A program made the position numbers and the translations under genes. From contig JAZSEC010000013.1 in assembly GCA_045531485.1 (NCBI GenBank), positions 4,510 to 68,509 of the forward strand: DNA of 64,000 nt. Direction: 5' to 3'. This DNA comes from Eubacteriales bacterium. GTDB taxonomy: Bacteria; Bacillota; Clostridia; Oscillospirales; CAG-272. This document shows positions 4,945-63,470 of this stretch, in pieces. The notes under the pieces are model-generated. The model had not been told where the DNA came from. It made no database searches and worked only from the letters and a program-made list of their open reading frames with translations. The first letter of the stretch is position 1. Each line of letters opens with the position of its first letter.

Positions 4945-6705
4945 GTGTACTCATACGCACAAGATCTTTTTCGAGAAAAAAGAAAAGTTGTAATTTATGC
5001 CCGTGTATCAACTGAACACGAAGCACAGCTCTCTGCCCTTGAAAATCAGATTGATTGGTACAAACCTATTTTAGATGCCCACCCTGAATGGGAGCTTGTC
5101 GGAACGTACATAGACGAAGGTATTACCGGAACGTCGGCCGAAAAGCGTGAGCAATTTATGAGAATGATTGCTGATGCTAAAGAGCATAAGTTCGATCTGA
5201 TCATCACAAGAGAGGTTTCAAGATTTGCAAGAAACACCGTAGATACCCTACAATATACTCGTGAGCTTCGCCGTATTGGAGTTGAGGTTTTCTTCCTTAA
5301 TGATAATATAAAAACCTTTGACGGTGATGGCGAGTTAAGACTTACCATTATGGCGACACTTGCCCAGGATGAAAGCCGCAAGACTTCTATCAGAGTAAAA
5401 AGTGGTCAGCAAACCTCTATGGAAAAAGGCGTGGTGTACGGCAACGGCAACATTCTTGGATATAAACGTGTTGGAAAAGAAATGGTCATAGACCCCGAAC
5501 AAGCCAAAACAGTGCGATTGATTTATGATTTATACCTCCAAGGCTACGGAATAATGAAAATAAAACACGAACTGGAGGCTAAAGGAATAAAGACGTCCAC
5601 AGGCAAAGAAAGATGGGCGGCTACGGTTATTTCAAATGTTCTAAAAAACACTTTTTACTATGGTGTAATGACTTATCATAAAGAGTACGTTCCAGACTAT
5701 CTTACTCAAAAGAAAATTAAGAATAAAGGAACTCTTGAACTGACGCAGACCATTGGAAAACACGAACCAATAGTTACTAAGGAAGAGTATGATAAAGTTC
5801 AAGAAATTCTAAGTAAGAGAACCAGAATTATCAAAGATAAAACACGAGAAAGAAGATTGCAAGGAGTAAATACCCCCTCGCATCCCTGGAGCAAACTGCT
5901 TCATTGTTACTGTGGACACAGCTTTAATCGCCAACATTATTCTCAAAAAGGGAGACGACAAGTATATACTTACATATGCAACAGGAAAAGAATGGAGGGA
6001 TCTATAAAAACAAGAACAAAGAAGGGATTACCTATAGATGACGTTTGCATGTCTCCTACTTTAAGCGAAGCAAGGCTCGAAATGATGGCGATGTATATTT
6101 TTGAAAATTACATTACGAAAAGAGACGTCATTGCTAAATTAGCAAAAGAAATCCTTGCCCAGCATATAAACGATAAACCTGATATGCCGGACCAAGAAGA
6201 TTTAATACGCTCTCTAGAAAACGAGCTACAAAAAATAGAAAAGCGATTTGACGTGTTAATTGAACTGCGTGCTGATGGTGAAATCGATAAAACAATCTTT
6301 CGAAAAAAGACAAGCGAGTTAGAAGAGAAAAAAGGAGAAATTAACAAAAATCTTGCTACTCTTAAAAATTCATCTAACAGCAACTCACGAGTTGATCTTA
6401 CAAAAAAGCTAAAGCAGTTGAATGAAATAATAGATTCGTCGATAGAGATCGAGAAGAACAAACAAATTCCAACTAGCGTGCTTGAGTGTTTTATTAGCAA
6501 AATAATTGTTTGCCCGGGTCACTTGGAATGGCATCTAAGAACCGGTACAGAAATCACGAAGGATGATGACAAAACCAAGCCCATTAAGTTAGCTGAATTT
6601 AAGATAAATCGCGAATTTGCTATCAATTTTTTATCTCAGAATTCAGGTGCTCATCACTTCAAATTTTCATGCTGGAAAGACGAAAAAATAGAAATTTATA
6701 TATAA
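4945..6705 (+). CDS. large serine recombinase (resolvase N-terminal domain + recombinase domain + zinc ribbon + coiled coil, TnpX-like)
   Basis: VVIYARVSTEHEAQLSALENQ contains the catalytic Ser motif. ITREVSRFARN and LAQDESRKTSIRVK are also present. Cys cluster CYCGHSF...YICNRK and a long C-terminal coiled-coil-like region follow. Confidence 0.9.
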   Translation: MYSYAQDLFREKRKVVIYARVSTEHEAQLSALENQIDWYKPILDAHPEWELVGTYIDEGITGTSAEKREQFMRMIADAKEHKFDLIITREVSRFARNTVDTLQYTRELRRIGVEVFFLNDNIKTFDGDGELRLTIMATLAQDESRKTSIRVKSGQQTSMEKGVVYGNGNILGYKRVGKEMVIDPEQAKTVRLIYDLYLQGYGIMKIKHELEAKGIKTSTGKERWAATVISNVLKNTFYYGVMTYHKEYVPDYLTQKKIKNKGTLELTQTIGKHEPIVTKEEYDKVQEILSKRTRIIKDKTRERRLQGVNTPSHPWSKLLHCYCGHSFNRQHYSQKGRRQVYTYICNRKRMEGSIKTRTKKGLPIDDVCMSPTLSEARLEMMAMYIFENYITKRDVIAKLAKEILAQHINDKPDMPDQEDLIRSLENELQKIEKRFDVLIELRADGEIDKTIFRKKTSELEEKKGEINKNLATLKNSSNSNSRVDLTKKLKQLNEIIDSSIEIEKNKQIPTSVLECFISKIIVCPGHLEWHLRTGTEITKDDDKTKPIKLAEFKINREFAINFLSQNSGAHHFKFSCWKDEKIEIYI

Positions 6706-36500: not shown

Positions 36501-38693
36501 GTCAGCCTGAACAAGAAGTGCAAGGCCTCTCTCGATGCCGAGATTTGCCTCATCCATTCTCTCCTGGCTGTTCCAGTAGTTGGAAATGGTGAGATCCTCG
36601 ATCACACAATTAACCGCACTGTCTCTGATAGCAACGGTAGCAGTGGAGTCGGTGGTATGAACGAAGCCGCCTGCATCTCTGAGACCGAAGAGAGAATCCC
36701 ATTCGATAATGGTCTTATCAGCACCCTCACCGCAGATCTTAAGGTTAGGAATGGTGATCTCAAGCTTTTCGTTGTAAAGACCCTCGCGGATAAGGATCTC
36801 CTTGGGAGTACCTGCGTCTGCCTTAGCAAGGAAGTCGAGAGCCTGCTGAATGGTGCTGAAGCAGTAGTATTCACCGGAAAGGGCACCTCTGGCACCCTCG
36901 TAATTAGGATCAACGAGAGTAAGGATGACGCCATCCTCGTTGGGAGCAGGAGTTACGTCTGTTACGTGAACGTCGATGGTAGCAGAAACTCTGCTTTCGC
37001 CAAATACGTAAGAGATGGTGATGGTCTTAGCACCTGCGGTGGAAAGATCAACCTCGCTCATCTCGTATGCAGAGCCAACGTTGAAGGTCTTCTTGCTATC
37101 AGCGAGAATGCCGTTTACAAGCACGGAAAGACCGGAGAGATCAAGGGTATCGCCTACGCTGTAGACTTCCTTGAAGCTGTAGTTGAAGTAAACGCCGTTG
37201 CCTGCAGCAGACTGGCCGTTCTGCTTAATAGCATCGAGGCCAAGGGTAACGCTTTCGGGCATATAAACGTTTATAGCTACGGTGATGGGAGTATATTCCT
37301 TATACTTAATGGTAATAGGGTAAGTACCGGAAACCGCAAGATTAACCGCGGAGGTATCGATAATTACGTCAGAGAGAGCGAGGGGCTCGGTCTTGCCGTT
37401 CTTATAGGTAGCGTTAAGCTTGAGTCCGGAGGTATCAAGCTTTTGGCCGCAGAGGTAATCTACGTTGCCTGCGGAAACGAGCTCAAAGCCGTTTTCATCA
37501 GACTTTTCAACGATGCAGGAAAGATCAAGAGCATAGATGTCCTGAGTACCGCCGTTCTTACCGCGTCCGATGGTCCATTCACCTGCGGTAACGTCAACGG
37601 TGATTTTTACAAGAGGGCTGCCCTCATCGGTTCCTGCGAACTCGATGTCATAAACTGTTCCGTCGGGAGCAGTAACGGTTACGAACTGAGTAGCTGCACC
37701 GCTGGAGCCGTTCTGGATAATGAAGGAAAGCTTACCTGTACCGGGAACGTCAACCTTGATAGCATTGCCGTTAGAACCGAACTTTACAGAACGGATGTAC
37801 TCGGTTACAAGACCGGTGTCGGGATCGGTGAACTTCTTGGTTCTGTTTCTGATCTCGGTATTTGCAACGATAACGAACTTGCCGGAGAAGAGATCGGTCT
37901 CCTGCTTGCCTGCCTCGAACTCGTCGCCTACAACAAGGCTATAGGTAACTCTCTCGAGATTCTCGGGGAGCTCATCCTTGCCGCAGATGTCACATGCATA
38001 GTCGCTGTCTGCGTCTACACACTCGGAGATAACCTGGCCGCAATAGCCACAAGCGTGGCTGCCGGTTGCTTCCTTGTGTTCACCCATTTCGGTGCCGCAA
38101 ACGTCGCACTTATGGTTGGTGTCAGCGTCTTCACACTCGGAGAGAGCAACACCGCAGTAGCCACAGTTATGGCTGCCGTCTGCTGCCTTATGCTCACCAA
38201 CATCGGTGCCGCAAACGTCACACTTGTGATTCTTATCAGTGTCCTCACACTCGGTGAGAGCCGCACCACAGATAGAGCAGCTGTGAGAATCAGCCGCTAC
38301 GTTGTGATCAGAAAGCTTCTTGCCACAAACCTTACAGTTGTGAGAGTTAGCCTCTGCCTCACACTCGGAGAGCTTCTTGCCGCAAACAGAGCATTCGTGG
38401 CTGCCGTCTGCTGCCGCACAATCGGAAAGCTTTTCTTCGCAAAGGTCACAGCTGTGATCTTTGTTTTCGTCCTTGTGCTCGCAAGTGGGATCATCGGGGG
38501 TGTCGTTGTTCTCAAGTTCTGCCTGACATTTGTCGCAGATGTAGTCGCCGTTTTCATCAACGTGCTCTTCGCAGGGCTTATCGCCGCCGATCAGATCGCC
38601 AAGGCCCGGGATCTTACCAAGAAGATCGCAGGAGGAAAGAGCGAAGATGGATACAACGAGCATAACTACTAAGAGAAGTGCCGTTTTTTTCAT
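33561..38693 (-). CDS. ~1710-aa multidomain surface lipoprotein containing a CE8 pectin methylesterase domain
   Basis: Start refined to MKKTALLLVVMLVVSIFALSSC (RBS AAGGAGA). About 11 CxxC knuckles at the N-terminus. Ig-like domains. CE8 signatures IQDTLELF, YTDFIFG and IGRTWG. Two near-identical ~92-aa C-terminal repeats. Confidence 0.85.
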   Translation of the reverse strand: MKKTALLLVVMLVVSIFALSSCDLLGKIPGLGDLIGGDKPCEEHVDENGDYICDKCQAELENNDTPDDPTCEHKDENKDHSCDLCEEKLSDCAAADGSHECSVCGKKLSECEAEANSHNCKVCGKKLSDHNVAADSHSCSICGAALTECEDTDKNHKCDVCGTDVGEHKAADGSHNCGYCGVALSECEDADTNHKCDVCGTEMGEHKEATGSHACGYCGQVISECVDADSDYACDICGKDELPENLERVTYSLVVGDEFEAGKQETDLFSGKFVIVANTEIRNRTKKFTDPDTGLVTEYIRSVKFGSNGNAIKVDVPGTGKLSFIIQNGSSGAATQFVTVTAPDGTVYDIEFAGTDEGSPLVKITVDVTAGEWTIGRGKNGGTQDIYALDLSCIVEKSDENGFELVSAGNVDYLCGQKLDTSGLKLNATYKNGKTEPLALSDVIIDTSAVNLAVSGTYPITIKYKEYTPITVAINVYMPESVTLGLDAIKQNGQSAAGNGVYFNYSFKEVYSVGDTLDLSGLSVLVNGILADSKKTFNVGSAYEMSEVDLSTAGAKTITISYVFGESRVSATIDVHVTDVTPAPNEDGVILTLVDPNYEGARGALSGEYYCFSTIQQALDFLAKADAGTPKEILIREGLYNEKLEITIPNLKICGEGADKTIIEWDSLFGLRDAGGFVHTTDSTATVAIRDSAVNCVIEDLTISNYWNSQERMDEANLGIERGLALLVQADRFIMRNSKLLGIQDTLELFTGRQYFENVFISGYTDFIFGTNNTTLFKGCTIHVIDTVKNTSGTAGYLTAFKGSNKGASDAITYGAIFYQCKFTADEGIMEGKTAIGRTWGAYAAVAIIESELGGHISLDGYVSSENKNKRYISMNGIHPTDDTVQFVEYNNTGAGAITEPVAGMKMLTAEEAALYIDIATIFGKINRGVSWLDPWDPAVTEIVEDDRTYYYFDQTVGTSGTSNTFDINTTIASGSTLEWAGLLISAENGKVAWNSNANSLNMKAGAFIKFTVPAGTEVTVITYPNYNYFTLNGVATASSTTLSQYYTEETEVVLLSTGDLYIYQIIINPDEEAPAAPDLSEIKASGMNTNYNVGDELSLEGLVVKATYSDNSVIEITDYIVDSSAVVNTAAGEYVVVISFGGKTASVTVIYEDPNADPAITKDTVLDFTTVEGLESVQNNPKVTIEGSVRHNGGEIQITGTISFKIKAGTVITVIPYANTQYASFKIYAEGKQDDITYNETQSVMFFEDCTVVYEGLENNYLCKIFVECPLGEGKYVFGGSTIEGDVTGILESIPSMSVSGTCKTHSGGAQLGSDSQIIFICPALATVTIQGFDTNYGQLLVLVDGVPVEMNDKAQYVINATYPATVIIEAVNVGTEAEPAWNKSYITYIEVDLPVYVEENTEITFGSEGNYKDSVVDFSGITIGDNGGNNSQIKNGSFSFAVRKGAIVTVHGYNGYTSYNLGDGELVYKGITDEFFNYEAWSDCVITISHTEGNNYFYSISVVYPVVFEENTTIDLSATNGLKVEGSTANYEGLEIDATNGKFADNGSGWVQINAGTVIKLNVLDGAEVSAKTYQNAEIFTIEIVEGVCTLTCTANGYVGAITVNYPIVYDEATTIDLSATNGTKIEGSVGVYEGLTVDATSGKFADNGSGWVQINAGTIITLSVAEGASVTAKTYQDAEIFTIEIVDGVCTLTCTANGYIGAINVAY

Positions 38694-38831
38694 GATTTTT
38701 CTCCTTTTTTTGTTATATGTAAATTTGCGTTTACATTTAAAGTGAAAATTTGATGTTTTGCTAGGATTGTAAAGCCTCATCCGTCAGCCTGCGGCTGCCA
38801 CCTTCCCCAACGGGGAAGGCTTGTAATAGGC

Positions 38832-39216
38832 AGTGCAGATCGGATAAAGTCGGGTAAATTCAGAGAGATGTGTTACTTCTTGGGTCGCCGGGCGTAGTTA
38901 CCTACGTCAAGACACAAGAAGGAGTGCAGATCGCCAAAGGCAAATAAATTCGGATGAGATGTGCTGCTTCTTGGGTCGCCGAGCGTAGTTACCTACGTCA
39001 AGGCACAAGAAGGAGTGCAGATCGCCAAAGGCAAATAAATTCAGATGAGATGTGTTACTTCTTGGGTCGCCGGGCGTAGTTACCTACGTCAAGACACAAG
39101 AAGGAGTGCAGATAGGATAAAGTCGGGTAAATTCAGAGAGATGTGCTGCTTCTTGGGTCGCCGGGCGTAGTTACCTACGTCAAGACACAAGAAGGAGTGC
39201 AGATCGCCGAATTTTA
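38832..39216. repeat. tandem array of 4 x 91-bp units plus a 21-bp partial unit
   Basis: Units at 38832-38922, 38923-39013, 39014-39104 and 39105-39195, with a partial unit at 39196-39216. Each carries the core gtcgccg(g/a)gcgtagttacctacgtcaag(a/g)ca flanked by cttcttg / caagaag. Confidence 0.95.
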
Positions 39217-41244
39217 GGCTCCCTGGGATGTACCGGTGATTTCGAAGGAAAGCTCCGTAAACTCAACTACGGTGCCACGGTTTGCGAACATACCAACGTA
39301 CATGTACTCGGTATCTCTGGCAAGGAGGTCGAAATCGTAGTGGGTGGTGGATACGGTCTTGTCACCCGAGGTTACGGTAACGGTGATGGACTGGCCAACA
39401 CGCTCGATAGACATGGTATAAACGTCGCCAACTGCATAGAAGTCACCGAATGCCTGACCCTTACCAAGACTTGCGTTCTCTCTTAAGAAGAGTGCGTTTG
39501 TGGTATTGTCGCTGTTGCAGAGGATACCTGCGGTAACGTAGTTGGACTTGATGGATGCGTCCTTGATGGGAAGGTAAACGTCATCACGAAGCATAAGGCC
39601 GAAGCCTGCCTGCTGGGTAGAGCCGGTATTAAGAATAGTAGCGGTTACGCTGATCTTGAAGTTCTTATCAGCCGAAACCTGAGTGAAGAGGAAGGCAAAG
39701 CCATCAGAGGAGGAGGAGAACTTACCCTTATTGCTGCCGCTGTCAAGATGCTGACCAACCTTGAAGGAGCCGTCCTCCTGCTCGGTAGCGTAGTAGCCGT
39801 TGGTAATAGAGCCGTCATCCTTGATTGCTGCGGGATCTCCGCCAGTGTCACCGAAGGCGGTGCCGTACCAGCCCTCTGTGGTTACGCTGAACTGAGGCTG
39901 ACTGCCAAACTCGGAGAGATTGGGTGCCTTGTAATCAGAGAATACGTAGGAGGGATTAACCACCAGGTCTGCCTCGGTGGGTGCAGTGATATCGGCAAGA
40001 ACGTATCTGCCGATGCCGTCGATCTTAGCAAGCTCGCATGCCAGGTTGTAAGCCACGAACTTAGCACCGTAGATATTAAGGTGGGTCTTGTCAACCGAAT
40101 CCCAGTTGGGAACTACGGTGGTGCCGTCGGTGTCAAGCATACCGACGCTGACTGCGTGATAAAGCTTAATGGACTCATAGCCCTTAGAGGAGTACTCTGC
40201 CTTAGTAATGGCGGTAAGGTCTACTACGGGAACGTTTACCGCTGTACCGAGGTCGATAATAGCCTGGGCGTAGTTACCTGTAGCGGTATTGTGACCCTCG
40301 TTGCCAGAGTAGTCGTCAGAGGTCTTTGCTCTAACTATGGGAGTACAGAGAATAGGTGTTGCACCGCATTCCTCTGCAAGCTTGATATAATAATTGTAGA
40401 GATAGTAGCCGAAGGATGTGGGATCGGTGTAATCCTTAGATGCATCGGTAAATCTCGCTGCATCGTCGCTCTTTTCATCATTATGACCGAAGCCGATAAT
40501 GAGATAATCACCTGCCTTAAGGCTGGTCTTAAGAGTCTGGTAATTGTCCTCCTCGATAAAGCTCTTGGAGCTTCTGCCGGAGAGAGCCAGGTTAACTACG
40601 GTTGCCTTGGAATCAAGATAATTTCCAAGCTGGGTGCCATAGCCGTATCTGGGATAATAGTATCCGTCCTGGAAGGAGCATACGGTAGAGTCACCTACGA
40701 GATATATCTTTGTTTCTGTAAGCACTTCGGGCTCCTCCTTATAATCGGGGTCTTTTTCACCGCACTCGCACTTGCCGTCTACGAACACGTGGGTGTGGGG
40801 AGGCACGTAGTTGGGATCCTCTTCACCGCACTCGCACTTGCCGTCTACGAACACGTGGGTGTGGGGAGGCACGTAGTTGGGATCCTCTTCGCCGCACTCG
40901 CACTTGCCGTCTACAAACACGTGGGTGTGGGGAGGTACGTAATTGGGATCCTCTTCACCGCACTCGCACTTGCCGTCTACAAACACGTGGGTGTGGGGAG
41001 GTACGTAATTGGGATCCTCTTCGCCGCACTCGCACTTGCCGTCTACGAAGCTGTGAGTATGCTCGGGCTTCTCGCCATCATCGGGCTTTTCGCCATCGTC
41101 GGGAGTCTCACCGTCGTCGGGAGTCTCGCCATCGCCAACGCCGGGAAGGTTAAGTCCGGGGATCTTAGCGATAAGATCGCAGGATGCCAGAGTGAAAATT
41201 GAAAGAATAAGAAGTAATGCGATTATTACAACTCTTTTTTTCAT
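39214..41244 (-). CDS. SGNH/GDSL hydrolase lipoprotein (CE12 rhamnogalacturonan acetylesterase-like) with a C-terminal beta-sandwich-like domain
   Basis: Lipobox TLASC. Five 22-aa repeats PPHTHVFVDGKCECGEEDPNYV. IYLVGDSTV (block I Ser), GHNDEK and DKTHLN (block V). Confidence 0.8.
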   Translation of the reverse strand: MKKRVVIIALLLILSIFTLASCDLIAKIPGLNLPGVGDGETPDDGETPDDGEKPDDGEKPEHTHSFVDGKCECGEEDPNYVPPHTHVFVDGKCECGEEDPNYVPPHTHVFVDGKCECGEEDPNYVPPHTHVFVDGKCECGEEDPNYVPPHTHVFVDGKCECGEKDPDYKEEPEVLTETKIYLVGDSTVCSFQDGYYYPRYGYGTQLGNYLDSKATVVNLALSGRSSKSFIEEDNYQTLKTSLKAGDYLIIGFGHNDEKSDDAARFTDASKDYTDPTSFGYYLYNYYIKLAEECGATPILCTPIVRAKTSDDYSGNEGHNTATGNYAQAIIDLGTAVNVPVVDLTAITKAEYSSKGYESIKLYHAVSVGMLDTDGTTVVPNWDSVDKTHLNIYGAKFVAYNLACELAKIDGIGRYVLADITAPTEADLVVNPSYVFSDYKAPNLSEFGSQPQFSVTTEGWYGTAFGDTGGDPAAIKDDGSITNGYYATEQEDGSFKVGQHLDSGSNKGKFSSSSDGFAFLFTQVSADKNFKISVTATILNTGSTQQAGFGLMLRDDVYLPIKDASIKSNYVTAGILCNSDNTTNALFLRENASLGKGQAFGDFYAVGDVYTMSIERVGQSITVTVTSGDKTVSTTHYDFDLLARDTEYMYVGMFANRGTVVEFTELSFEITGTSQGA
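40745..41075. repeat. 5 x 66-bp in-frame tandem repeat inside the esterase gene
   Basis: cgcactcgca recurs at 40761, 40827, 40893, 40959 and 41025 (period 66 bp). Confidence 0.9.
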
Positions 41245-49902: not shown

Positions 49903-51600
<1,698 letters not shown>

Positions 51601-51610
51601 TTACTTCAAG

Positions 51611-51800
51611 ACAAGCGATCCGATGCAATTCGCAAAATTTTGATGAAGTGCGAGCAACGGTTGTCGCCGGGCGTAGTCACCTACGTCAAATCAAGTAATC
51701 CGATGCGATTCGCAAAATTTTGATGAAGTGCGAGGAACGGTTGTCGCCGGGCGTAGTCACCTACGTCAAGACAAGCGATCCGAAGCAATTCGCAAAATTT
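51611..51800. repeat. 2 x 80-bp tandem units plus a 30-bp partial unit in the groES-groEL spacer
   Basis: Units at 51611-51690 and 51691-51770 (6 mismatches in 80), with a partial unit at 51771-51800. Core gtcgccgggcgtagtcacctacgtcaa. Confidence 0.95.
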
Positions 51801-52083
51801 ATTCTATAATGGCGAGAATGTCGGATTGAGATACGATAGAATATTCCTCTCCGTCAAGCTTAACCTCGGTGCCGCTGTACTTGCCAACGATTACCTTGTC
51901 GCCAACCTTAACGGTCATCTTGATCTCCTTGCCGTCAACGAGTCCGCCGGGTCCTACTGCCACAACCTCGGACATCTGAGGCTTTTCCTTTGCACTGCCG
52001 GTGAGAAGAATGCCGCTCTTGGTGGTTTCCTCTGCAACTGCAGCCTTTAATACAACCTTGTCAAACAAAGGCTTAATAGTCAT
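51799..52083 (-). CDS. groES: co-chaperonin GroES
   Basis: Start refined to MTIKPLFDKVVLK (94 aa, RBS GGAGA). The track N-terminal extension covers the CIRCE/promoter region. Confidence 0.95.
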   Translation of the reverse strand: MTIKPLFDKVVLKAAVAEETTKSGILLTGSAKEKPQMSEVVAVGPGGLVDGKEIKMTVKVGDKVIVGKYSGTEVKLDGEEYSIVSQSDILAIIE

Positions 52084-55602: not shown

Positions 55603-55736
55603 ATCGGGAGTTTTAATTTTAAATACATAATGTGAAATTCAGAATTATAAAAAATGGCGATTTTGTAATGTTAAGTTGGCAAAATCGCTGTTTTTATGAA
55701 ATTTTGCGGCGAAAAATAAATATTTAGCGAGAAAAA

Positions 55737-55764
55737 ATCCGCCTTACCAAAATGGAAGGCGGAT
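55737..55764 (-). terminator. terminator (stronger on the minus strand) in the convergent intergenic region
   Basis: atccgcctt...aaggcggat with T6 on the minus strand. Confidence 0.6.
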
Positions 55765-55907
55765 TTAAACATATAGTGAGGCTATAGGATAAGAGTGGAA
55801 AAATCGTTCAAGACAAGGCAAAGCAAGCGATTGAGGTGAAGCCGTAGTAACCTACGGCGATCCGATTGAGTCGAAGCTTTAACGCAGTATTGGGCGATTT
55901 TTGCCTC

Positions 55908-56714
55908 TTAGCCGGGTTGTTTGCCAAAGTACGCCTGAATACCTCCATCAACGTAGAGGATCTGACCGTTTACAAAATCAGATGCTGTGGATGCGAGGAA
56001 TACAGCGGGACCTGCGAGATCCTCGGGGTTGCCCCAACGGCCTGCGGGAGTCTTGGTATCGGTGATGAAGCTGTCGAAGGGATGCTTGCTACCGTCTGCC
56101 TGGGGCTCGCGAAGGGGTGCGGTCTGGGGAGTAGCAATATAGCCGGGGCCAATGCCGTTGCACTGAATGTTGTACTGGCCATACTCACTTGCAATATTTC
56201 TGGTAAGCATCTTAAGGCCGCCCTTTGCAGAAGCGTAAGCGGATACGGTCTCACGGGCGAACTCACTCATCATAGAGCAGATGTTGATGATCTTACCCGA
56301 TCTCTGCTTGATCATGGAAGGAAGAACCGCCTTAGAAACGATGAAGGGAGCGTTAAGGTCAACGTCGATAACCTGACGGAACTCGGACGCCTTCATCTCA
56401 ATCATGGGAATACGCTTGATGATACCTGCGTTGTTTACGAGAATGTCGATTACGCCGACCTCCTTCTCGATCTTGGCAACGAGCTCGTTTACTGCATCCT
56501 CGTCGGTAACGTCGCAAACGTAACCCTTGGCATCAATGCCCTCTGCAGCGTAGCTGGCAAGACCGCGATCTACGAACTCCTGCTTAATGTCGTTGAAAAC
56601 GATGGTCGCACCTGCAGCAGCAAGACCCTTTGCAATAGCGAAGCCGATGCCGTAGGACGCACCTGTGATGAGAGCAACCTTGCCCTCAAGGTTGAAGATC
56701 TGTGTGTTGGACAT
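55908..56714 (-). CDS. kduD: SDR oxidoreductase, KduD / gluconate 5-dehydrogenase-like
   Basis: TGASYGIG, NNAG and YxxxK (YASAKGG) motifs. Adjacent to kduI. Confidence 0.82.
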   Translation of the reverse strand: MSNTQIFNLEGKVALITGASYGIGFAIAKGLAAAGATIVFNDIKQEFVDRGLASYAAEGIDAKGYVCDVTDEDAVNELVAKIEKEVGVIDILVNNAGIIKRIPMIEMKASEFRQVIDVDLNAPFIVSKAVLPSMIKQRSGKIINICSMMSEFARETVSAYASAKGGLKMLTRNIASEYGQYNIQCNGIGPGYIATPQTAPLREPQADGSKHPFDSFITDTKTPAGRWGNPEDLAGPAVFLASTASDFVNGQILYVDGGIQAYFGKQPG

Positions 56715-57759: not shown

Positions 57760-58013
57760 TTATAGGTTTTACCTCTTCGGGAGGAGTAGCGTGTTATTTG
57801 CCACAAGAGAGTGTGCGGTTGGTGCGAGCATACGGAGATGCACGTGAAGGTAGCCCGAAGTATCCCCGGAAGAACGGCGTTTTAGCTTATTAGAACCGGG
57901 CGGTGAGCACCGTTATCTGCGTTAATGAGGCAGAGCATTTCTCTGCAAATTTGGGTGGTACCACGGAGTCTTTTCGTCCCAAGCGACAGCTTTTCGTCGC
58001 TTGGGATTTTTTT
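57760..58013 (+). promoter_or_regulatory. T-box riboswitch leader (tRNA-Val)
   Basis: Stem I base cttcggg/cccgaag, AGUA and GAA S-turn elements, and AGAGA. T-box aaatttgggtggtaccacgg (57947-57966). Terminator tcccaagcgac...gtcgcttggga plus T7 (57977-58013). Confidence 0.85.
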
Positions 58014-58043
58014 ATTGATAAATTACCGAAAGGAAGAAACAAA

Positions 58044-60671
58044 ATGAAAGAACTTGCAAAAAACTACAATCCTGCCGAGTTTGAGGATAGGATATACGAA
58101 AATTGGTGCGAGAAGGGTTATTTCAAGCCCGATTCGGACGATAAGAAGCCAAGCTTCTCTATCGTAATTCCTCCGCCTAACGTAACCGGTCAGCTTCACA
58201 TGGGTCACGCTCTTGACGAAACGCTCCAGGACATTCTGGTTCGTACCAAGAGAATGCAGGGCTACTCTACCCTTTGGGTTCCCGGCACAGACCACGCGGG
58301 AATTGCAACACAGATAAAGGTTGAGGAAAGACTCAGAGTTGACGAGGGTCTGTCCCGCTATGATCTCGGCCGTGAGAAATTTCTCGATCGCGTTTGGGCG
58401 TGGAAGGATTCCTACGAGGCACGCATCACCGGTCAGCTTAAAAAGCTCGGTGCATCCTGCGACTGGTCAAGACAGCGTTTTACTATGGACGAGGGCTGCT
58501 CCAGAGCAGTACGCGAGGTGTTCGTAAACCTTTACAACAAGGGACTTATCTACCGCGGACACAGAATTATTAACTGGTGTCCCAGATGCCTTACCGCCCT
58601 CTCGGACGCGGAGGTTGAATATAAGGATCAGCCCGGCTTCTTCTGGCATATCAAGTACCCCATAAAGGGCGAGGACGGCTACGTTGAGATAGCTACCACA
58701 AGACCCGAAACTATGTTCGGTGACACCGCCGTTGCGGTAAATCCCGAGGACGAAAATACAAAGCATCTTATCGGCAAGACCCTTATTCTGCCCATCGTTG
58801 GCAGAGAGATACCCGTGATCGCTGACGATTACGTTGAGATCGGCTTCGGTACCGGCTGCGTTAAGATCACTCCTGCACACGACCCCAACGACTTCCTGGT
58901 TGGTCAAAGACACGAGCTTGAGCAGATCAAGGTTATGAATGACGATGCTACTATGAACGCATACGCAGGCAAGTACGAGGGTATGGACAGATACGCCTGC
59001 CGTAAGGCACTGGTTGCAGATCTGGAAAGTGAGGGTTATCTTGTTAAGACCGAGCCTCACGACCACAACGTAGGTACCTGCTACCGTTGTGGCACTACCG
59101 TTGAGCCTCTCACCAGCGACCAGTGGTTCGTTAAGATGAAGCCTCTGGCAAAGCCTGCCATCGAGGCGGTTGAGAACGGATCTGTTCGCTTCGTTCCCGA
59201 GAGATTCTCCAAGAACTACTTCAACTGGATGAACAACATCCTTGACTGGTGTATTTCCCGTCAGCTCTGGTGGGGACACCGCATTCCTGCCTTCTACTGT
59301 GACGAGTGCGGTCACATGGAGGTTTCCAAGACCGATATCGACACCTGTCCCAAGTGTGGCGGCAAGGTAAGACAGGAGGAGGACGTGCTTGACACCTGGT
59401 TCTCCTCTGCCCTCTGGCCCTTCTCTACTCTGGGCTGGCCCGACGTTACCGAGGATCTTAAGAGATATTATCCCACCGACACCCTTGTTACCGGTTATGA
59501 TATTATCACCTTCTGGGTATCGAGAATGATCTTCTCCGGCCTTGAGCACATGGATGAGAAACCCTTCTCTACCGTATTTATTCACGGTCTGGTACGTGAC
59601 GCACAGGGCAGAAAGATGTCCAAGTCGCTTGGCAACGGCATTGATCCCCTTAAGGTTATCGAGGAGTACGGTGCTGACGCACTGAGATTTGCCCTGGCTA
59701 CCGGTAATGCACCCGGCAACGATATGAGATTCTCCGACGAGAGAATTGAGGCTGCCAGAAACTTTGCAAACAAGCTCTGGAACGCATCCAGATTCGTGCT
59801 TATGAACCTTACCGAGAGCGACGAGGAGCTGCTTGCTCCTGCCGATGAGAGCGATCTTACCATCGAGGACAAGTGGATACTCTCCAAGTTCAACAGCCTT
59901 GCAAAGAGCGTAAACGACAATATTGCAAACTACGAGGTTGGCGTTGCACTGGCGGAGATCTATTCCTTCACCTGGGACACCTTCTGCGACTGGTATATCG
60001 AGATGGCGAAGAGCCGTATCTTCGAGGGCGGTGCCGCTGCACTTACAGCGAAGAGAACCCTCGTTCGCGTTCTGTCAGGTATTCTCGGCCTGCTTCATCC
60101 CTATATGCCCTTCATCACCGAGGAAATTTACCAAGCTATTCCTCACAGCTGCGAGTCTATTATGATCAGCGAGTATCCTAAGTTTGACTCCTCTCTCGTT
60201 TACACCGAGGCTGAGATCTCTGTTGAGAGAATTATCTCCTGCATTACCGCTATCAGAACACGCAGAGCCGAGATGAACGTTCCCCCCTCGAAGAAGGCAA
60301 AGCTCTACGTTGTTACCAAGTATGAGGAAAGCTTCAGAAACGCATCCAAGATCCTTGAGAAGCTGGCAAGTGCATCCGAGGTTATCCTTACCGACAGCTA
60401 TGAGTCGGACGATGCGGTTATGATCGCAACCGACGCAGGACGTATGTACATTCCTCTTGCTGAGGTTATCGACTTTGAGAAGGAGAGAGCAAGACTCACC
60501 GCCGAGATGAAGAAGAATGACGGCGAGATCGAGCGAATCGAAAGAAAGCTTGCTAACGAGGGCTTCGTAGCCAAGGCACCTGCCGCGGTTATTGAGGGTG
60601 AGAAGGCAAAGCTTCAGAAGTATCTCGAGGTACGCGAGTCGCTTACTGTTGCTCTCGCTAAGCTTAACTGA
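58044..60671 (+). CDS. valS: valine--tRNA ligase
   Basis: Start refined to [23 protein letters not shown] (HIGH) and KMSKS motifs. 875 aa. Confidence 0.97.
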
Positions 60672-62420: not shown

Positions 62421-63470
62421 ATGAAAAAGATAGTTTCTATTTTAATTATGATATGCCTTTTAACCGTTTTTGTGGGCTGTAATCCCGATTTCAGCCTTGG
62501 CGACGGTAAAAATGACGGCGAAATCAGCGGTATTGTGGGTGAAAACGGTGAAAGCGAAGGTGAAAATAACACCGACGTGGGAAATGGCGGTGAAACCGAG
62601 GACGAAAATACCGAAAATGATAATGAAGGCCCTGCCAATAGTGGAGAAAGCAACACTAATTACGGCGACAATACCACCGAGGGTGGCGGAAACGACGCAA
62701 ATTCGGGTGACAATACCACCGAGGGTGGCGAAAACGATGGAATTTCGGGCGACAATACCACCGAGGGTGGCGAAAATAATGGAATTTCGGGCGACAACAC
62801 CACCGAGGGTGGCGAAAACAGCGGAAATTCGGGCGATAACACCTCTGAGGGTGGCGGAAACGGCGGAATTTCGGGCGATAACACCACCGAGGGTGGCGAA
62901 AACGATGGAATTTCGGGTGACAATACCATCGAGGGTGGCGAAAATAGCGGAAATTCGGGTGACAACACCACCGAGGGTGGCGGAAACGGCGGAATTTCGG
63001 GCGATAACACCACCGAGGAGCAAAAGCCCGTGTACGTGGTGGGTAATGCCATTGGAAATCTATTCCGTAGTATAACCCTGGAAAAGAATGGCGGCGGTAC
63101 GGTCAGCCCCGACGATTATCGCGGCAAGATCGTTATTGTAAATATATGGGCGACCTGGTGTCCGCCTTGTAAGGCAGAGCTGCCCGACTTCGACCGTATT
63201 GCAAAAGAGTATGCAGACGATGTGGTTATAATTGCCGCCCACGACAGCTACGGCAGAGAGAATGCACCCGCATATATACAGACCAACCTGCCCGATAGTA
63301 GCATAATCTTCGCCTATGATTCGGTTTACGGCGACGCCTTCAATGCGGCGGGTGGCACAAAATACGTGCCGAGAACTGCTATCCTTGACCGTAACGGCGT
63401 TATCATCTACGCCCAGGACGGCCTTATGACCTACGAGCAGCTGAAGTCGATTATTGAGAGAGCGATCTGA
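62421..63470 (+). CDS. TlpA/ResA-like thioredoxin-fold lipoprotein with a long Gly/Asn/Thr/Glu repeat linker
   Basis: Start refined to MKKIVSILIMICLLTVFVGC. WATWCPPCKAELP active site. Confidence 0.85.
   Translation: MKKIVSILIMICLLTVFVGCNPDFSLGDGKNDGEISGIVGENGESEGENNTDVGNGGETEDENTENDNEGPANSGESNTNYGDNTTEGGGNDANSGDNTTEGGENDGISGDNTTEGGENNGISGDNTTEGGENSGNSGDNTSEGGGNGGISGDNTTEGGENDGISGDNTIEGGENSGNSGDNTTEGGGNGGISGDNTTEEQKPVYVVGNAIGNLFRSITLEKNGGGTVSPDDYRGKIVIVNIWATWCPPCKAELPDFDRIAKEYADDVVIIAAHDSYGRENAPAYIQTNLPDSSIIFAYDSVYGDAFNAAGGTKYVPRTAILDRNGVIIYAQDGLMTYEQLKSIIERAI
62664..63020. repeat. 8.5 x 42-bp in-frame tandem repeat (GDNTTEGGENxGxS)
   Basis: Read directly: ggcgacaataccaccgagggtggcg... recurs every 42 bp. 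Confidence 0.9.

Follow-up and report, generated by a model that had tools for sequence, protein, structure and literature searches.

REP, REPIN, ERIC and Correia repeats are known mainly from Proteobacteria, and both their spread and their role for the host are debated. ERIC, the Correia elements of Neisseria, bcr1-18 of the Bacillus cereus group and the Rickettsia palindromic elements (RPEs) are imperfect palindromes of 100–160 bp that are co-transcribed with their neighbours; some such repeats are processed by RNase III or stabilize mRNAs, RNA genes can accommodate RPEs and STRRs, and cyanobacterial STRRs lengthen P12 of RNase P RNA. To our knowledge, the ERIC, Correia, bcr, RPE and STRR repeats have conserved termini, often with target-site duplications, and occur in both orientations, and we know of no report that any of them is anchored at stop codons or shares an invariant tip with a GNRA-type cap. 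The attC sites are imperfect hairpins of 57–141 nt in which structure is conserved above sequence and the non-coding, complementary strand is the better or active folder. REPINs form long hairpins with compensatory changes, occur in tandem clusters and persist for a long time in a lineage (PMC3116915). According to PMC12306157, citing Liang et al., many E. coli REPs lie no more than 15 nt from a stop codon and there lower translation.

The 64,000-nucleotide stretch of DNA analysed here (the window) carries a 91-bp tandem repeat, array 1, directly behind an esterase gene. Array 1 consists of four copies of a hairpin element of about 80 nt that belongs to a large dispersed family of uncultured gut Clostridia, and seven copies of the element lie at three loci of the window (Table 1).

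Table 1 Features of the element and its surroundings in the window (positions of the window; strand as annotated).
Feature	Position	Strand	Remarks
Promoter-like site and RBS region of the CE8 giant gene	38694–38769	-	promoter-like site at 38723–38695
Dispersed repeat of another kind beside array 1	38770–38830	.	hairpin CCTTCCCC-aac-GGGGAAGG plus GGATGAGG arm
Array 1	38832–39213	-	four 91-bp units plus partial unit from 39196; from TRF, core positions, unit comparison and folds
Array 1 unit			rod-shaped imperfect hairpin of about 78 nt plus 13-nt linker, type A or B
Apical hairpin, unit 1	38891–38908	.	plus strand GGCGTAG-TTAC-CTACGTC; mRNA sense GACGUAG-GUAA-CUACGCC
Apical hairpins, other array 1 units	38982–38999, 39073–39090, 39164–39181		first base A, not G, at 38982–38999
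Esterase stop codon (TAA)	39214–39216	-	GDSL/CE12-like esterase gene 39214–41244; first element directly behind
Array 2	51602–51800	-	groES-groEL spacer; 2.5 units of 80 bp, sub-type 1; starts at groES stop 51799–51801
Array 2 apical hairpins	51670–51687, 51750–51767		third unit (about 51590–51640) without apex
Copy 7, single element, sub-type 2b	55795–55907	-	core 55817–55880; apex GCCGTAG-TAAC-CTACGGC

Architecture and origin of the array behind the esterase gene

The initial annotation described the segment 38832–39216 as four exact 91-bp units plus a 21-nt partial unit abutting the stop codon of a CE12-like esterase, each unit having a conserved half that folds as nested helices and a variable half of two types in the order A-B-B-A, and all of these points stand. 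TRF reports a period of 91 with 3.9 copies and 90% matches (score 583) at 38855–39208, and the 30-nt core GTCGCCGGGCGTAGTTACCTACGTCAAGAC recurs at 38884, 38975, 39066 and 39157, a spacing of exactly 91 nt, with 0 matches across 100 dinucleotide shuffles. The units start at 38832, 38923, 39014 and 39105, while the partial unit (39196–39216) runs into the TTA that adjoins the right end of the array, the stop codon with which a 676-aa minus-strand ORF containing GDSL lipase domains ends; a 1739-aa minus-strand ORF with Pectinesterase and Big_3 domains lies downstream. Identity between units is 45–47/47 in the conserved 47-nt half. The variable 44-nt half is 41/44 identical between units 1 and 4 and again between units 2 and 3, as against 25–28/44 between types A and B, and a second polymorphism in the outer stem (GTGTTAC versus GTGCTGC) sets units 1 and 3 apart from units 2 and 4. 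Because the linker groups the units as 1+4 versus 2+3 and the outer stem as 1+3 versus 2+4, the four units are mosaics, a pattern compatible with recombination between them. RNAfold recovers both helices, CUUCUUG/CAAGAAG and (GG)CGUAG-UUAC-CUACG(UC), in every unit, and on either strand the array is more stably folded than its shuffles (z −4.2 for minus and −5.0 for plus).

The likely start codon of the CE8 giant gene is at 38691–38693 and not at the ATG at 38780 of the mechanical ORF list, as judged by comparison with orthologues and by the RBS aaaggagaaaaatcATG; with the start at 38693, the spacer that holds the array is about 520 nt long. The dispersed repeat of another kind that lies next to array 1 gives this spacer a BIME-like mosaic make-up. 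Further copies of that repeat (38770–38830) adjoin elements in L001 and L208, and the orthologous spacer of both L129 and L130 contains it too; its word depth in metagenome and metatranscriptome contigs is 130–205 versus less than 10 for its flanks. In-frame coding tandem repeats are found in the esterase gene (66 bp x 4.7, 40742–41049), in the CE8 gene (114 bp x 2.2, Cys-rich, 38006–38261) and near the end of the window (42 bp x 8.5, 62664–63018).

The gene order MntP, Na/Ca exchanger, GDSL esterase and CE8 giant gene is kept in relatives at 60–78% protein identity, the closest esterase relatives being 72–78% identical. At least nine of these syntenic relatives (L131, L132, L135 and L173–L178) have an esterase-to-CE8 spacer of 51–67 nt that holds no element. 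The spacer of L133 contains one degenerate copy with a decayed apex, and that of L129 and L130 a remnant comprising the first ~25 nt of the element, after which another repeat begins. In every case the relatives' esterase has the same last residues (…QGA) and its stop codon at the same place, from which it follows that the element was added directly behind an existing stop codon, and the empty spacers in at least nine relatives mark array 1 as a recent lineage-specific insertion with tandem amplification. Empty and filled orthologous sites are too diverged for target-site duplications to be defined. A route of array growth is indicated by L040 (about 1–400), in which the upstream ORF runs on into the first element because no stop codon precedes it, while the second copy consists of the gene's last codons, the stop codon and the element, so that the duplication unit includes the gene end; this arrangement points to unequal recombination or slippage.

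The two other loci of the window carry the same kind of element behind different genes. TRF finds an 80-bp repeat at 51602–51800 in the spacer between groES and groEL, both on the minus strand, which has only the ~30-nt core in common with array 1. Most groES-groEL transcripts of related organisms in metatranscriptomes lack this array, and no database record was found for the window's exact GroES protein. Copy 7 was detected by a covariance model of the core and adjoining stem (27.4 bits, E 1.5e-6) and abuts the stop codon of a minus-strand SDR-type gene (55908–56714); downstream of it in mRNA sense lie a separate intrinsic-terminator-like hairpin and a T-run at about 55735–55770. The window also holds a T-box leader on the plus strand (57764–57984, Rfam 101 bits), upstream of a 922-aa ORF at 57903–60671, and has no tRNA or tmRNA.

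A dispersed family with an invariant hairpin tip

Searching for the unit in the genome and its relatives and analysing covariation on all copies had been proposed in the initial annotation. The core is present at three loci of the window and in more than 160 elements of related metagenome-assembled genomes (MAGs) from many species, so that a tie of the unit to the pectin-esterase spacer is not upheld. In a scan with one genome per species, an exact 24-mer of the core occurs in 10 Eubacteriales/Clostridia gut MAGs. A looser pattern and an exact 22-mer add many more; the 22-mer occurs in at least 118 stretches, and the matches listed all belong to Eubacteriales, Clostridia, Oscillospiraceae or 'Ruminococcus' MAGs from the guts of ruminants and other animals, often with several contigs per MAG. 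When grouped, the matches listed amount to at least 166 sites, comprising 142 single elements, 22 pairs, 1 triplet and 1 quadruplet, the last being that of the window. The three loci per 64 kb suggest, by extrapolation and not by count, a number of loci per genome of the order of one hundred. No copy of the 18-mer apex is found in IMG/VR, and a scan of JGI metagenomes with window-specific patterns gives no match.

Judged by Rfam 15 and the searchable literature, the family is uncatalogued. In agreement with the initial annotation, which recognized no named repeat or RNA family, a scan of Rfam 15 at the gathering score (window and 37 loci) and at E<=10 (both arrays) yields no family for the element; the sole weak match beside array 1 is to msiK (E 0.7) and is unrelated. 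Literature searches with core sequence strings or for such repeats in Clostridia return nothing specific. Set against the consensus sequences known to us of hammerhead, twister, pistol, hatchet and hairpin ribozymes, K-turns, group II domain V, CIRCE, the ssoA CS-6 motif and the pMV158 nick site, the core has no convincing match.

The common module of the family, read on the plus strand of the window, is the 18-nt GGCGTAG-TTAC-CTACGTC. On its 5′ side stand four bases (GCCG, CGAA, CGCA, GACA or others) and on its 3′ side AA or GA, closed mostly by a C-G pair, so that the invariant apex is set off by a 4-nt/2-nt internal loop. Outside the apex module the sequence varies among copies while the two sides pair, giving an imperfect rod of about 80–120 nt with 35–45 bp. 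Sub-types are distinguished by their arms: array 1 has a sub-type of its own, and the others are sub-type 1 (AAAUUUUGAUGAAGUGCGAGG...AAUUCGCAAAAUU), which includes array 2, sub-type 2 (CAAGACAAGGCGCACC...GAGGAGCAACGCCGUAUUG), which includes copy 7, and sub-type 3 (GAUUUUGAGCAGAAAUU...UUAUGCCAAAAU). The only close relative found for the array 1 sub-type is the degenerate copy at the orthologous site in L133. Of 62 distinct copies, 59 have an apical loop of GUAA, GUGA, GGAA, GCAA or GAAA on the mRNA strand, compatible with GNRA, positions 1 and 4 having been fixed by the search pattern.

Covariation was assessed on an ungapped alignment of 65 elements anchored on the invariant core only. The eight pairs adjoining the core are paired in 65% of cases versus 38% with a slid partner, and the stem adjoining the core has 133 double-sided changes, a number that none of 500 shuffles reaches (63 ± 7 in shuffles, 33–92 in slid controls). 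Sub-type 2 has compensatory changes in 9 of 21 predicted pairs along with conserved junction nucleotides. Orthologous genes of different species keep the element with compensated differences (L008/L117, L041/L051/L066, L064/L101 and L030/L082), and of two elements behind a YebC-family gene in L227 (about 5350–5620) one has an apex with three compensated pair changes and an unchanged loop (GCAAUAG-GUAA-CUAUUGC).

Two further copies lie inside known RNAs. The class A RNase P RNA of L004 (3796–4345) is 550 nt long versus ~370 and has about 155 extra nt, including an element, in the terminal loop of P12, and the T-box leader of L048 (3095–3438) carries in its stem III loop a 126-nt insert that is a type 2 element. 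Both host RNAs carry the GGCGUAG orientation, opposite to that found in mRNAs.

Stop-codon anchoring, transcription and strand asymmetry

The position of the element relative to genes was determined for 138 elements away from locus edges among the matches listed, counting ORFs of at least 80 codons with a stop within 75 nt before the hairpin. An opposite-strand ORF ends before the apical hairpin in 101 of the 138, at a median distance of 38 nt (5–95% range 31–57 nt). The mirror arrangement is seen for 27 elements, 24 of which also have the first arrangement, leaving 3 exclusive cases, and at convergent gene pairs the element abuts the antisense gene in 11 of 11. The upstream mRNA thus reads stop codon, AAAUUUUG..., GACGUAG-GUAA-CUACGCC, and on. 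In folds from 20 nt upstream, pairing across the hairpin involves the first base of the stop codon in 31% of cases, the second in 55% and bases from the third on in 67–76%; rod pairing sets in at base 2 or 3 of that stop codon, and in about half of the folds the far end is also paired with the final two or three codons of the gene. The stop codon is TAA in 79% of the genes that precede an element versus 64% in the same loci (p 0.001), an excess to which the TAA preference of highly expressed genes could contribute. The upstream genes are mostly housekeeping genes, among them groES, groEL, rplL, rplO, RNase Y, YebC and Asn/Asp-tRNA ligase (aaRS), and further PGK, PurH, HisH and PcrA.

The elements sit inside transcripts, between operon genes or between stop codon and terminator. 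Within array 1 and array 2 no terminator-like site and no plus-strand promoter-like site is predicted, array 2 lies inside the groES-groEL operon, and copy 7 is followed by a separate terminator; the element itself was therefore rejected as an intrinsic terminator. In strandless Logan contigs of metatranscriptomes, where the best word share of any run with the window genome is 0.12, the 3′ end of the esterase is joined to the last unit and the 5′ region of CE8 to the first unit. Contigs of this strandless kind from bovine gut metatranscriptomes show the apex next to a wide variety of flanks, its depth exceeding that of the neighbouring gene. In such contigs too, a copy behind an intrinsic terminator in L005 has no RNA contig, and rplL upstream of it is at thousands-fold depth. 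Array 1 most likely lies within the transcript of the flanking minus-strand genes, as 3′UTR of the esterase or as intercistronic RNA. Of the view in the initial annotation that the array belongs to a read-through or 5′ UTR RNA, membership in a transcript is retained, given the joining contigs and the lack of a predicted terminator or plus-strand promoter; the link as 5′ UTR to the downstream gene falls away, as position and the onset of pairing both link the family to the stop codon that precedes it.

The initial annotation had not remarked that the best-folding strand is the plus strand, antisense to the genes. Across the family, RNAfold prefers the strand opposite the mRNA in 59 of 63 elements (mean −43.5 versus −35.5 kcal/mol), and with DNA parameters the z values of the three window elements are −3.8, −4.5 and −2.5 for the plus strand, as against −1.3, −2.3 and −2.0 for the minus strand. 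The asymmetry is also seen in an energy-free test on 168 distinct elements, in which one arm was aligned with the reverse complement of the other. In this arm-to-arm alignment G.U-type mismatches number 338 on the non-mRNA strand versus 206 on the mRNA strand (p 2e-8; counted per element, 100 versus 35), and purine-purine mismatches on the non-mRNA strand 803 versus 104 pyrimidine-pyrimidine. In these mismatch counts the asymmetry appears with arm-to-arm alignment only, G.U versus A.C being 51 versus 43 on the ungapped alignment. By our reasoning the usual mutational strand biases predict the opposite asymmetry, and the observed one therefore looks selected. It can be read in several ways: template-strand DNA or antisense RNA can be the active form, a strong purine-rich hairpin can be tolerated in structural RNAs and not directly behind a stop codon, or the A.C and pyrimidine mismatches can serve a purpose in the mRNA form.

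Alternative explanations and comparison with known systems

Array 1 is probably a local amplification of a REP/REPIN/BIME-like dispersed hairpin element that is carried in 3′UTRs. Such a family would spread at the DNA level by way of an enzyme, by analogy with REP, BIME and REPIN elements, for which the invariant apex would be the recognition site, and slippage or unequal recombination would lengthen its arrays. Within the mRNA, the rod may act as a stable 3′ hairpin that blocks 3′-to-5′ exonucleases or offers an RNase III site, and, starting at the stop codon, it may slow termination in the manner of E. coli REPs no more than 15 nt from the stop. An unsystematic look at the window and the 8-kb loci revealed no mobilising enzyme or RAYT. 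Besides this, several observations stand against the REP/REPIN-like reading: the conserved part is the tip of the hairpin, the mRNA carries the poorer-folding strand, the copies in RNase P RNA and the T-box leader have the opposite orientation, and the strict polarity and stop-codon anchoring go beyond the analogy. It is possible, though we hold it doubtful, that the active form is instead single-stranded DNA of the template (plus) strand, a folded site for an HUH/Y1-type transposase or recombinase comparable to REP-RAYT, the ends of IS200/IS605 or the bottom strand of integron attC, with transcription in 3′UTRs being incidental. Such a site would account for the better folding of the plus strand with both RNA and DNA parameters and for the concentration on it of G.T and purine-purine mismatches, the most stable mismatches in DNA, and it agrees with the presence/absence polymorphism at orthologous sites, with the L005 copy that has no RNA contigs behind its terminator, and with attC, which likewise starts at the stop of the preceding ORF and whose folded strand is complementary to the coding strand. 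Yet neither integrase nor transposase was seen in the same unsystematic look at the window and the 8-kb loci, the hosts are core housekeeping genes in normal operons and not cassettes, the conserved module is apical where the R/L boxes of attC are basal, and orientation follows the gene and not an obvious replication rule, as the 11 of 11 convergent pairs illustrate; the G-N-R-A pattern of the loop in mRNA sense, seen in 59 of 62 copies, argues in the same direction, as a weak test with positions 1 and 4 fixed by the pattern. The family could also represent a new sort of polar element, a capped-hairpin module placed at stop codons and RNA hairpin tips by a termination-coupled mechanism or an ssDNA enzyme and read by a clade-specific protein. 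We consider this unlikely; if true, it would mean genome-wide 3′-end control of housekeeping mRNAs or a mobile DNA that targets the ends of ORFs.

The strand asymmetry and the plus-type orientation of both embedded copies, together with the conserved junction nucleotides and covarying helices of sub-type 2, would suit independent plus-strand non-coding RNAs, in which one or more units form a purine-rich, G.U-rich rod with an apex read by a clade-specific protein. Neither array has a plus-strand promoter-like site upstream and the groES-groEL spacer is too short to contain one, such RNAs would hardly account for the close link with the upstream stop codon, and the isolated L005 copy is at zero RNA contig depth, all of which makes them improbable. 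The place of array 1 between two same-strand pectin-related genes, and its significant fold, at first sight recommend a cis-regulatory RNA (riboswitch, attenuator or 5′UTR structure) for the CE8 gene or the pectin operon. This view, and with it the idea of the array as a regulator of these pectin genes, is contradicted by the empty 51–67-nt spacers of the syntenic relatives, by the same element behind unrelated housekeeping genes, by the lack of an Rfam match and by the position of the CE8 promoter-like site downstream of the array, and we rate it as very improbable; we infer that the element is not a dedicated regulator of the pectin-esterase genes. The regular period and the alternation of a conserved with a variable half also bring to mind a CRISPR array, a type III antitoxin (ToxI-like) repeat or a neutral duplication confined to the locus, the last of which the initial annotation had set against its own proposal. 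Locus-confined duplication is excluded by the dispersal of the core over hundreds of loci and by the pairing of the flanks. The 'spacers' of the array pair with each other across the 'repeat' and recur as A-B-B-A, unlike CRISPR spacers, periods of 80–170 nt are unlike those of ToxI-type repeats, and the adjacent genes are an esterase and a pectinesterase with no cas or toxN-like gene among them; as a group, these three readings have next to no probability.

The REP/REPIN/BIME-like reading, which we prefer, and the alternatives to it bear on abundant but uncultured gut and rumen Clostridia, the hosts of the family. The invariant 18-nt tip is the expected handle for a binding protein or enzyme, the near-absolute orientation and stop-codon anchoring direct attention to targeting of ORF ends or to a role in termination or 3′-end stability, and the strand asymmetry separates RNA-level from DNA-level models. 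In practical terms, the elements break short-read assemblies and inflate intergenic spacers, lengthen the RNase P RNA and T-box leaders of some MAGs and can mislead gene callers (as in L040), and array length may serve as a strain marker.

By analogy, the family appears to work like a REP/REPIN/BIME-type element without being a member of that family. In common with these it consists of hairpin-forming extragenic repeats of about 100 nt that are present in many copies per genome and kept across the species of a lineage. It shares with REPINs the compensatory changes in the hairpin and the tandem clusters, whose units are nearly identical, and as in BIMEs the element forms mosaics with other small repeats. 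In contrast, a REPIN is made of two inverted REPs with a GTAG-type head that form the stem, whereas the present element has one conserved apical hairpin with variable arms; REPINs lie dispersed through extragenic space, whereas this element keeps a fixed orientation to the upstream gene, its rod starting at the stop codon; and, unlike REPIN/RAYT systems, it has no known RAYT and its host clade is Clostridia. MITEs differ in that their terminal repeats are conserved, whereas here it is the hairpin tip. As in RPEs and STRRs, members of the family are found inside RNA genes, namely in P12 of RNase P RNA and in stem III of a T-box leader. A start at the stop of the preceding ORF, or overlapping it, is common to the element and to attC sites, including the Vibrio VCRs, as is the better folding of the strand complementary to the coding strand. 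The boxes R′′/L′′ and L′/R′ of attC (RYYYAAC...GTTRRRY) are basal and its tip is variable, whereas here the tip is conserved and the base variable, and attC sites separate promoterless cassettes beside intI, whereas the present elements stand in housekeeping operons and form arrays without ORFs.
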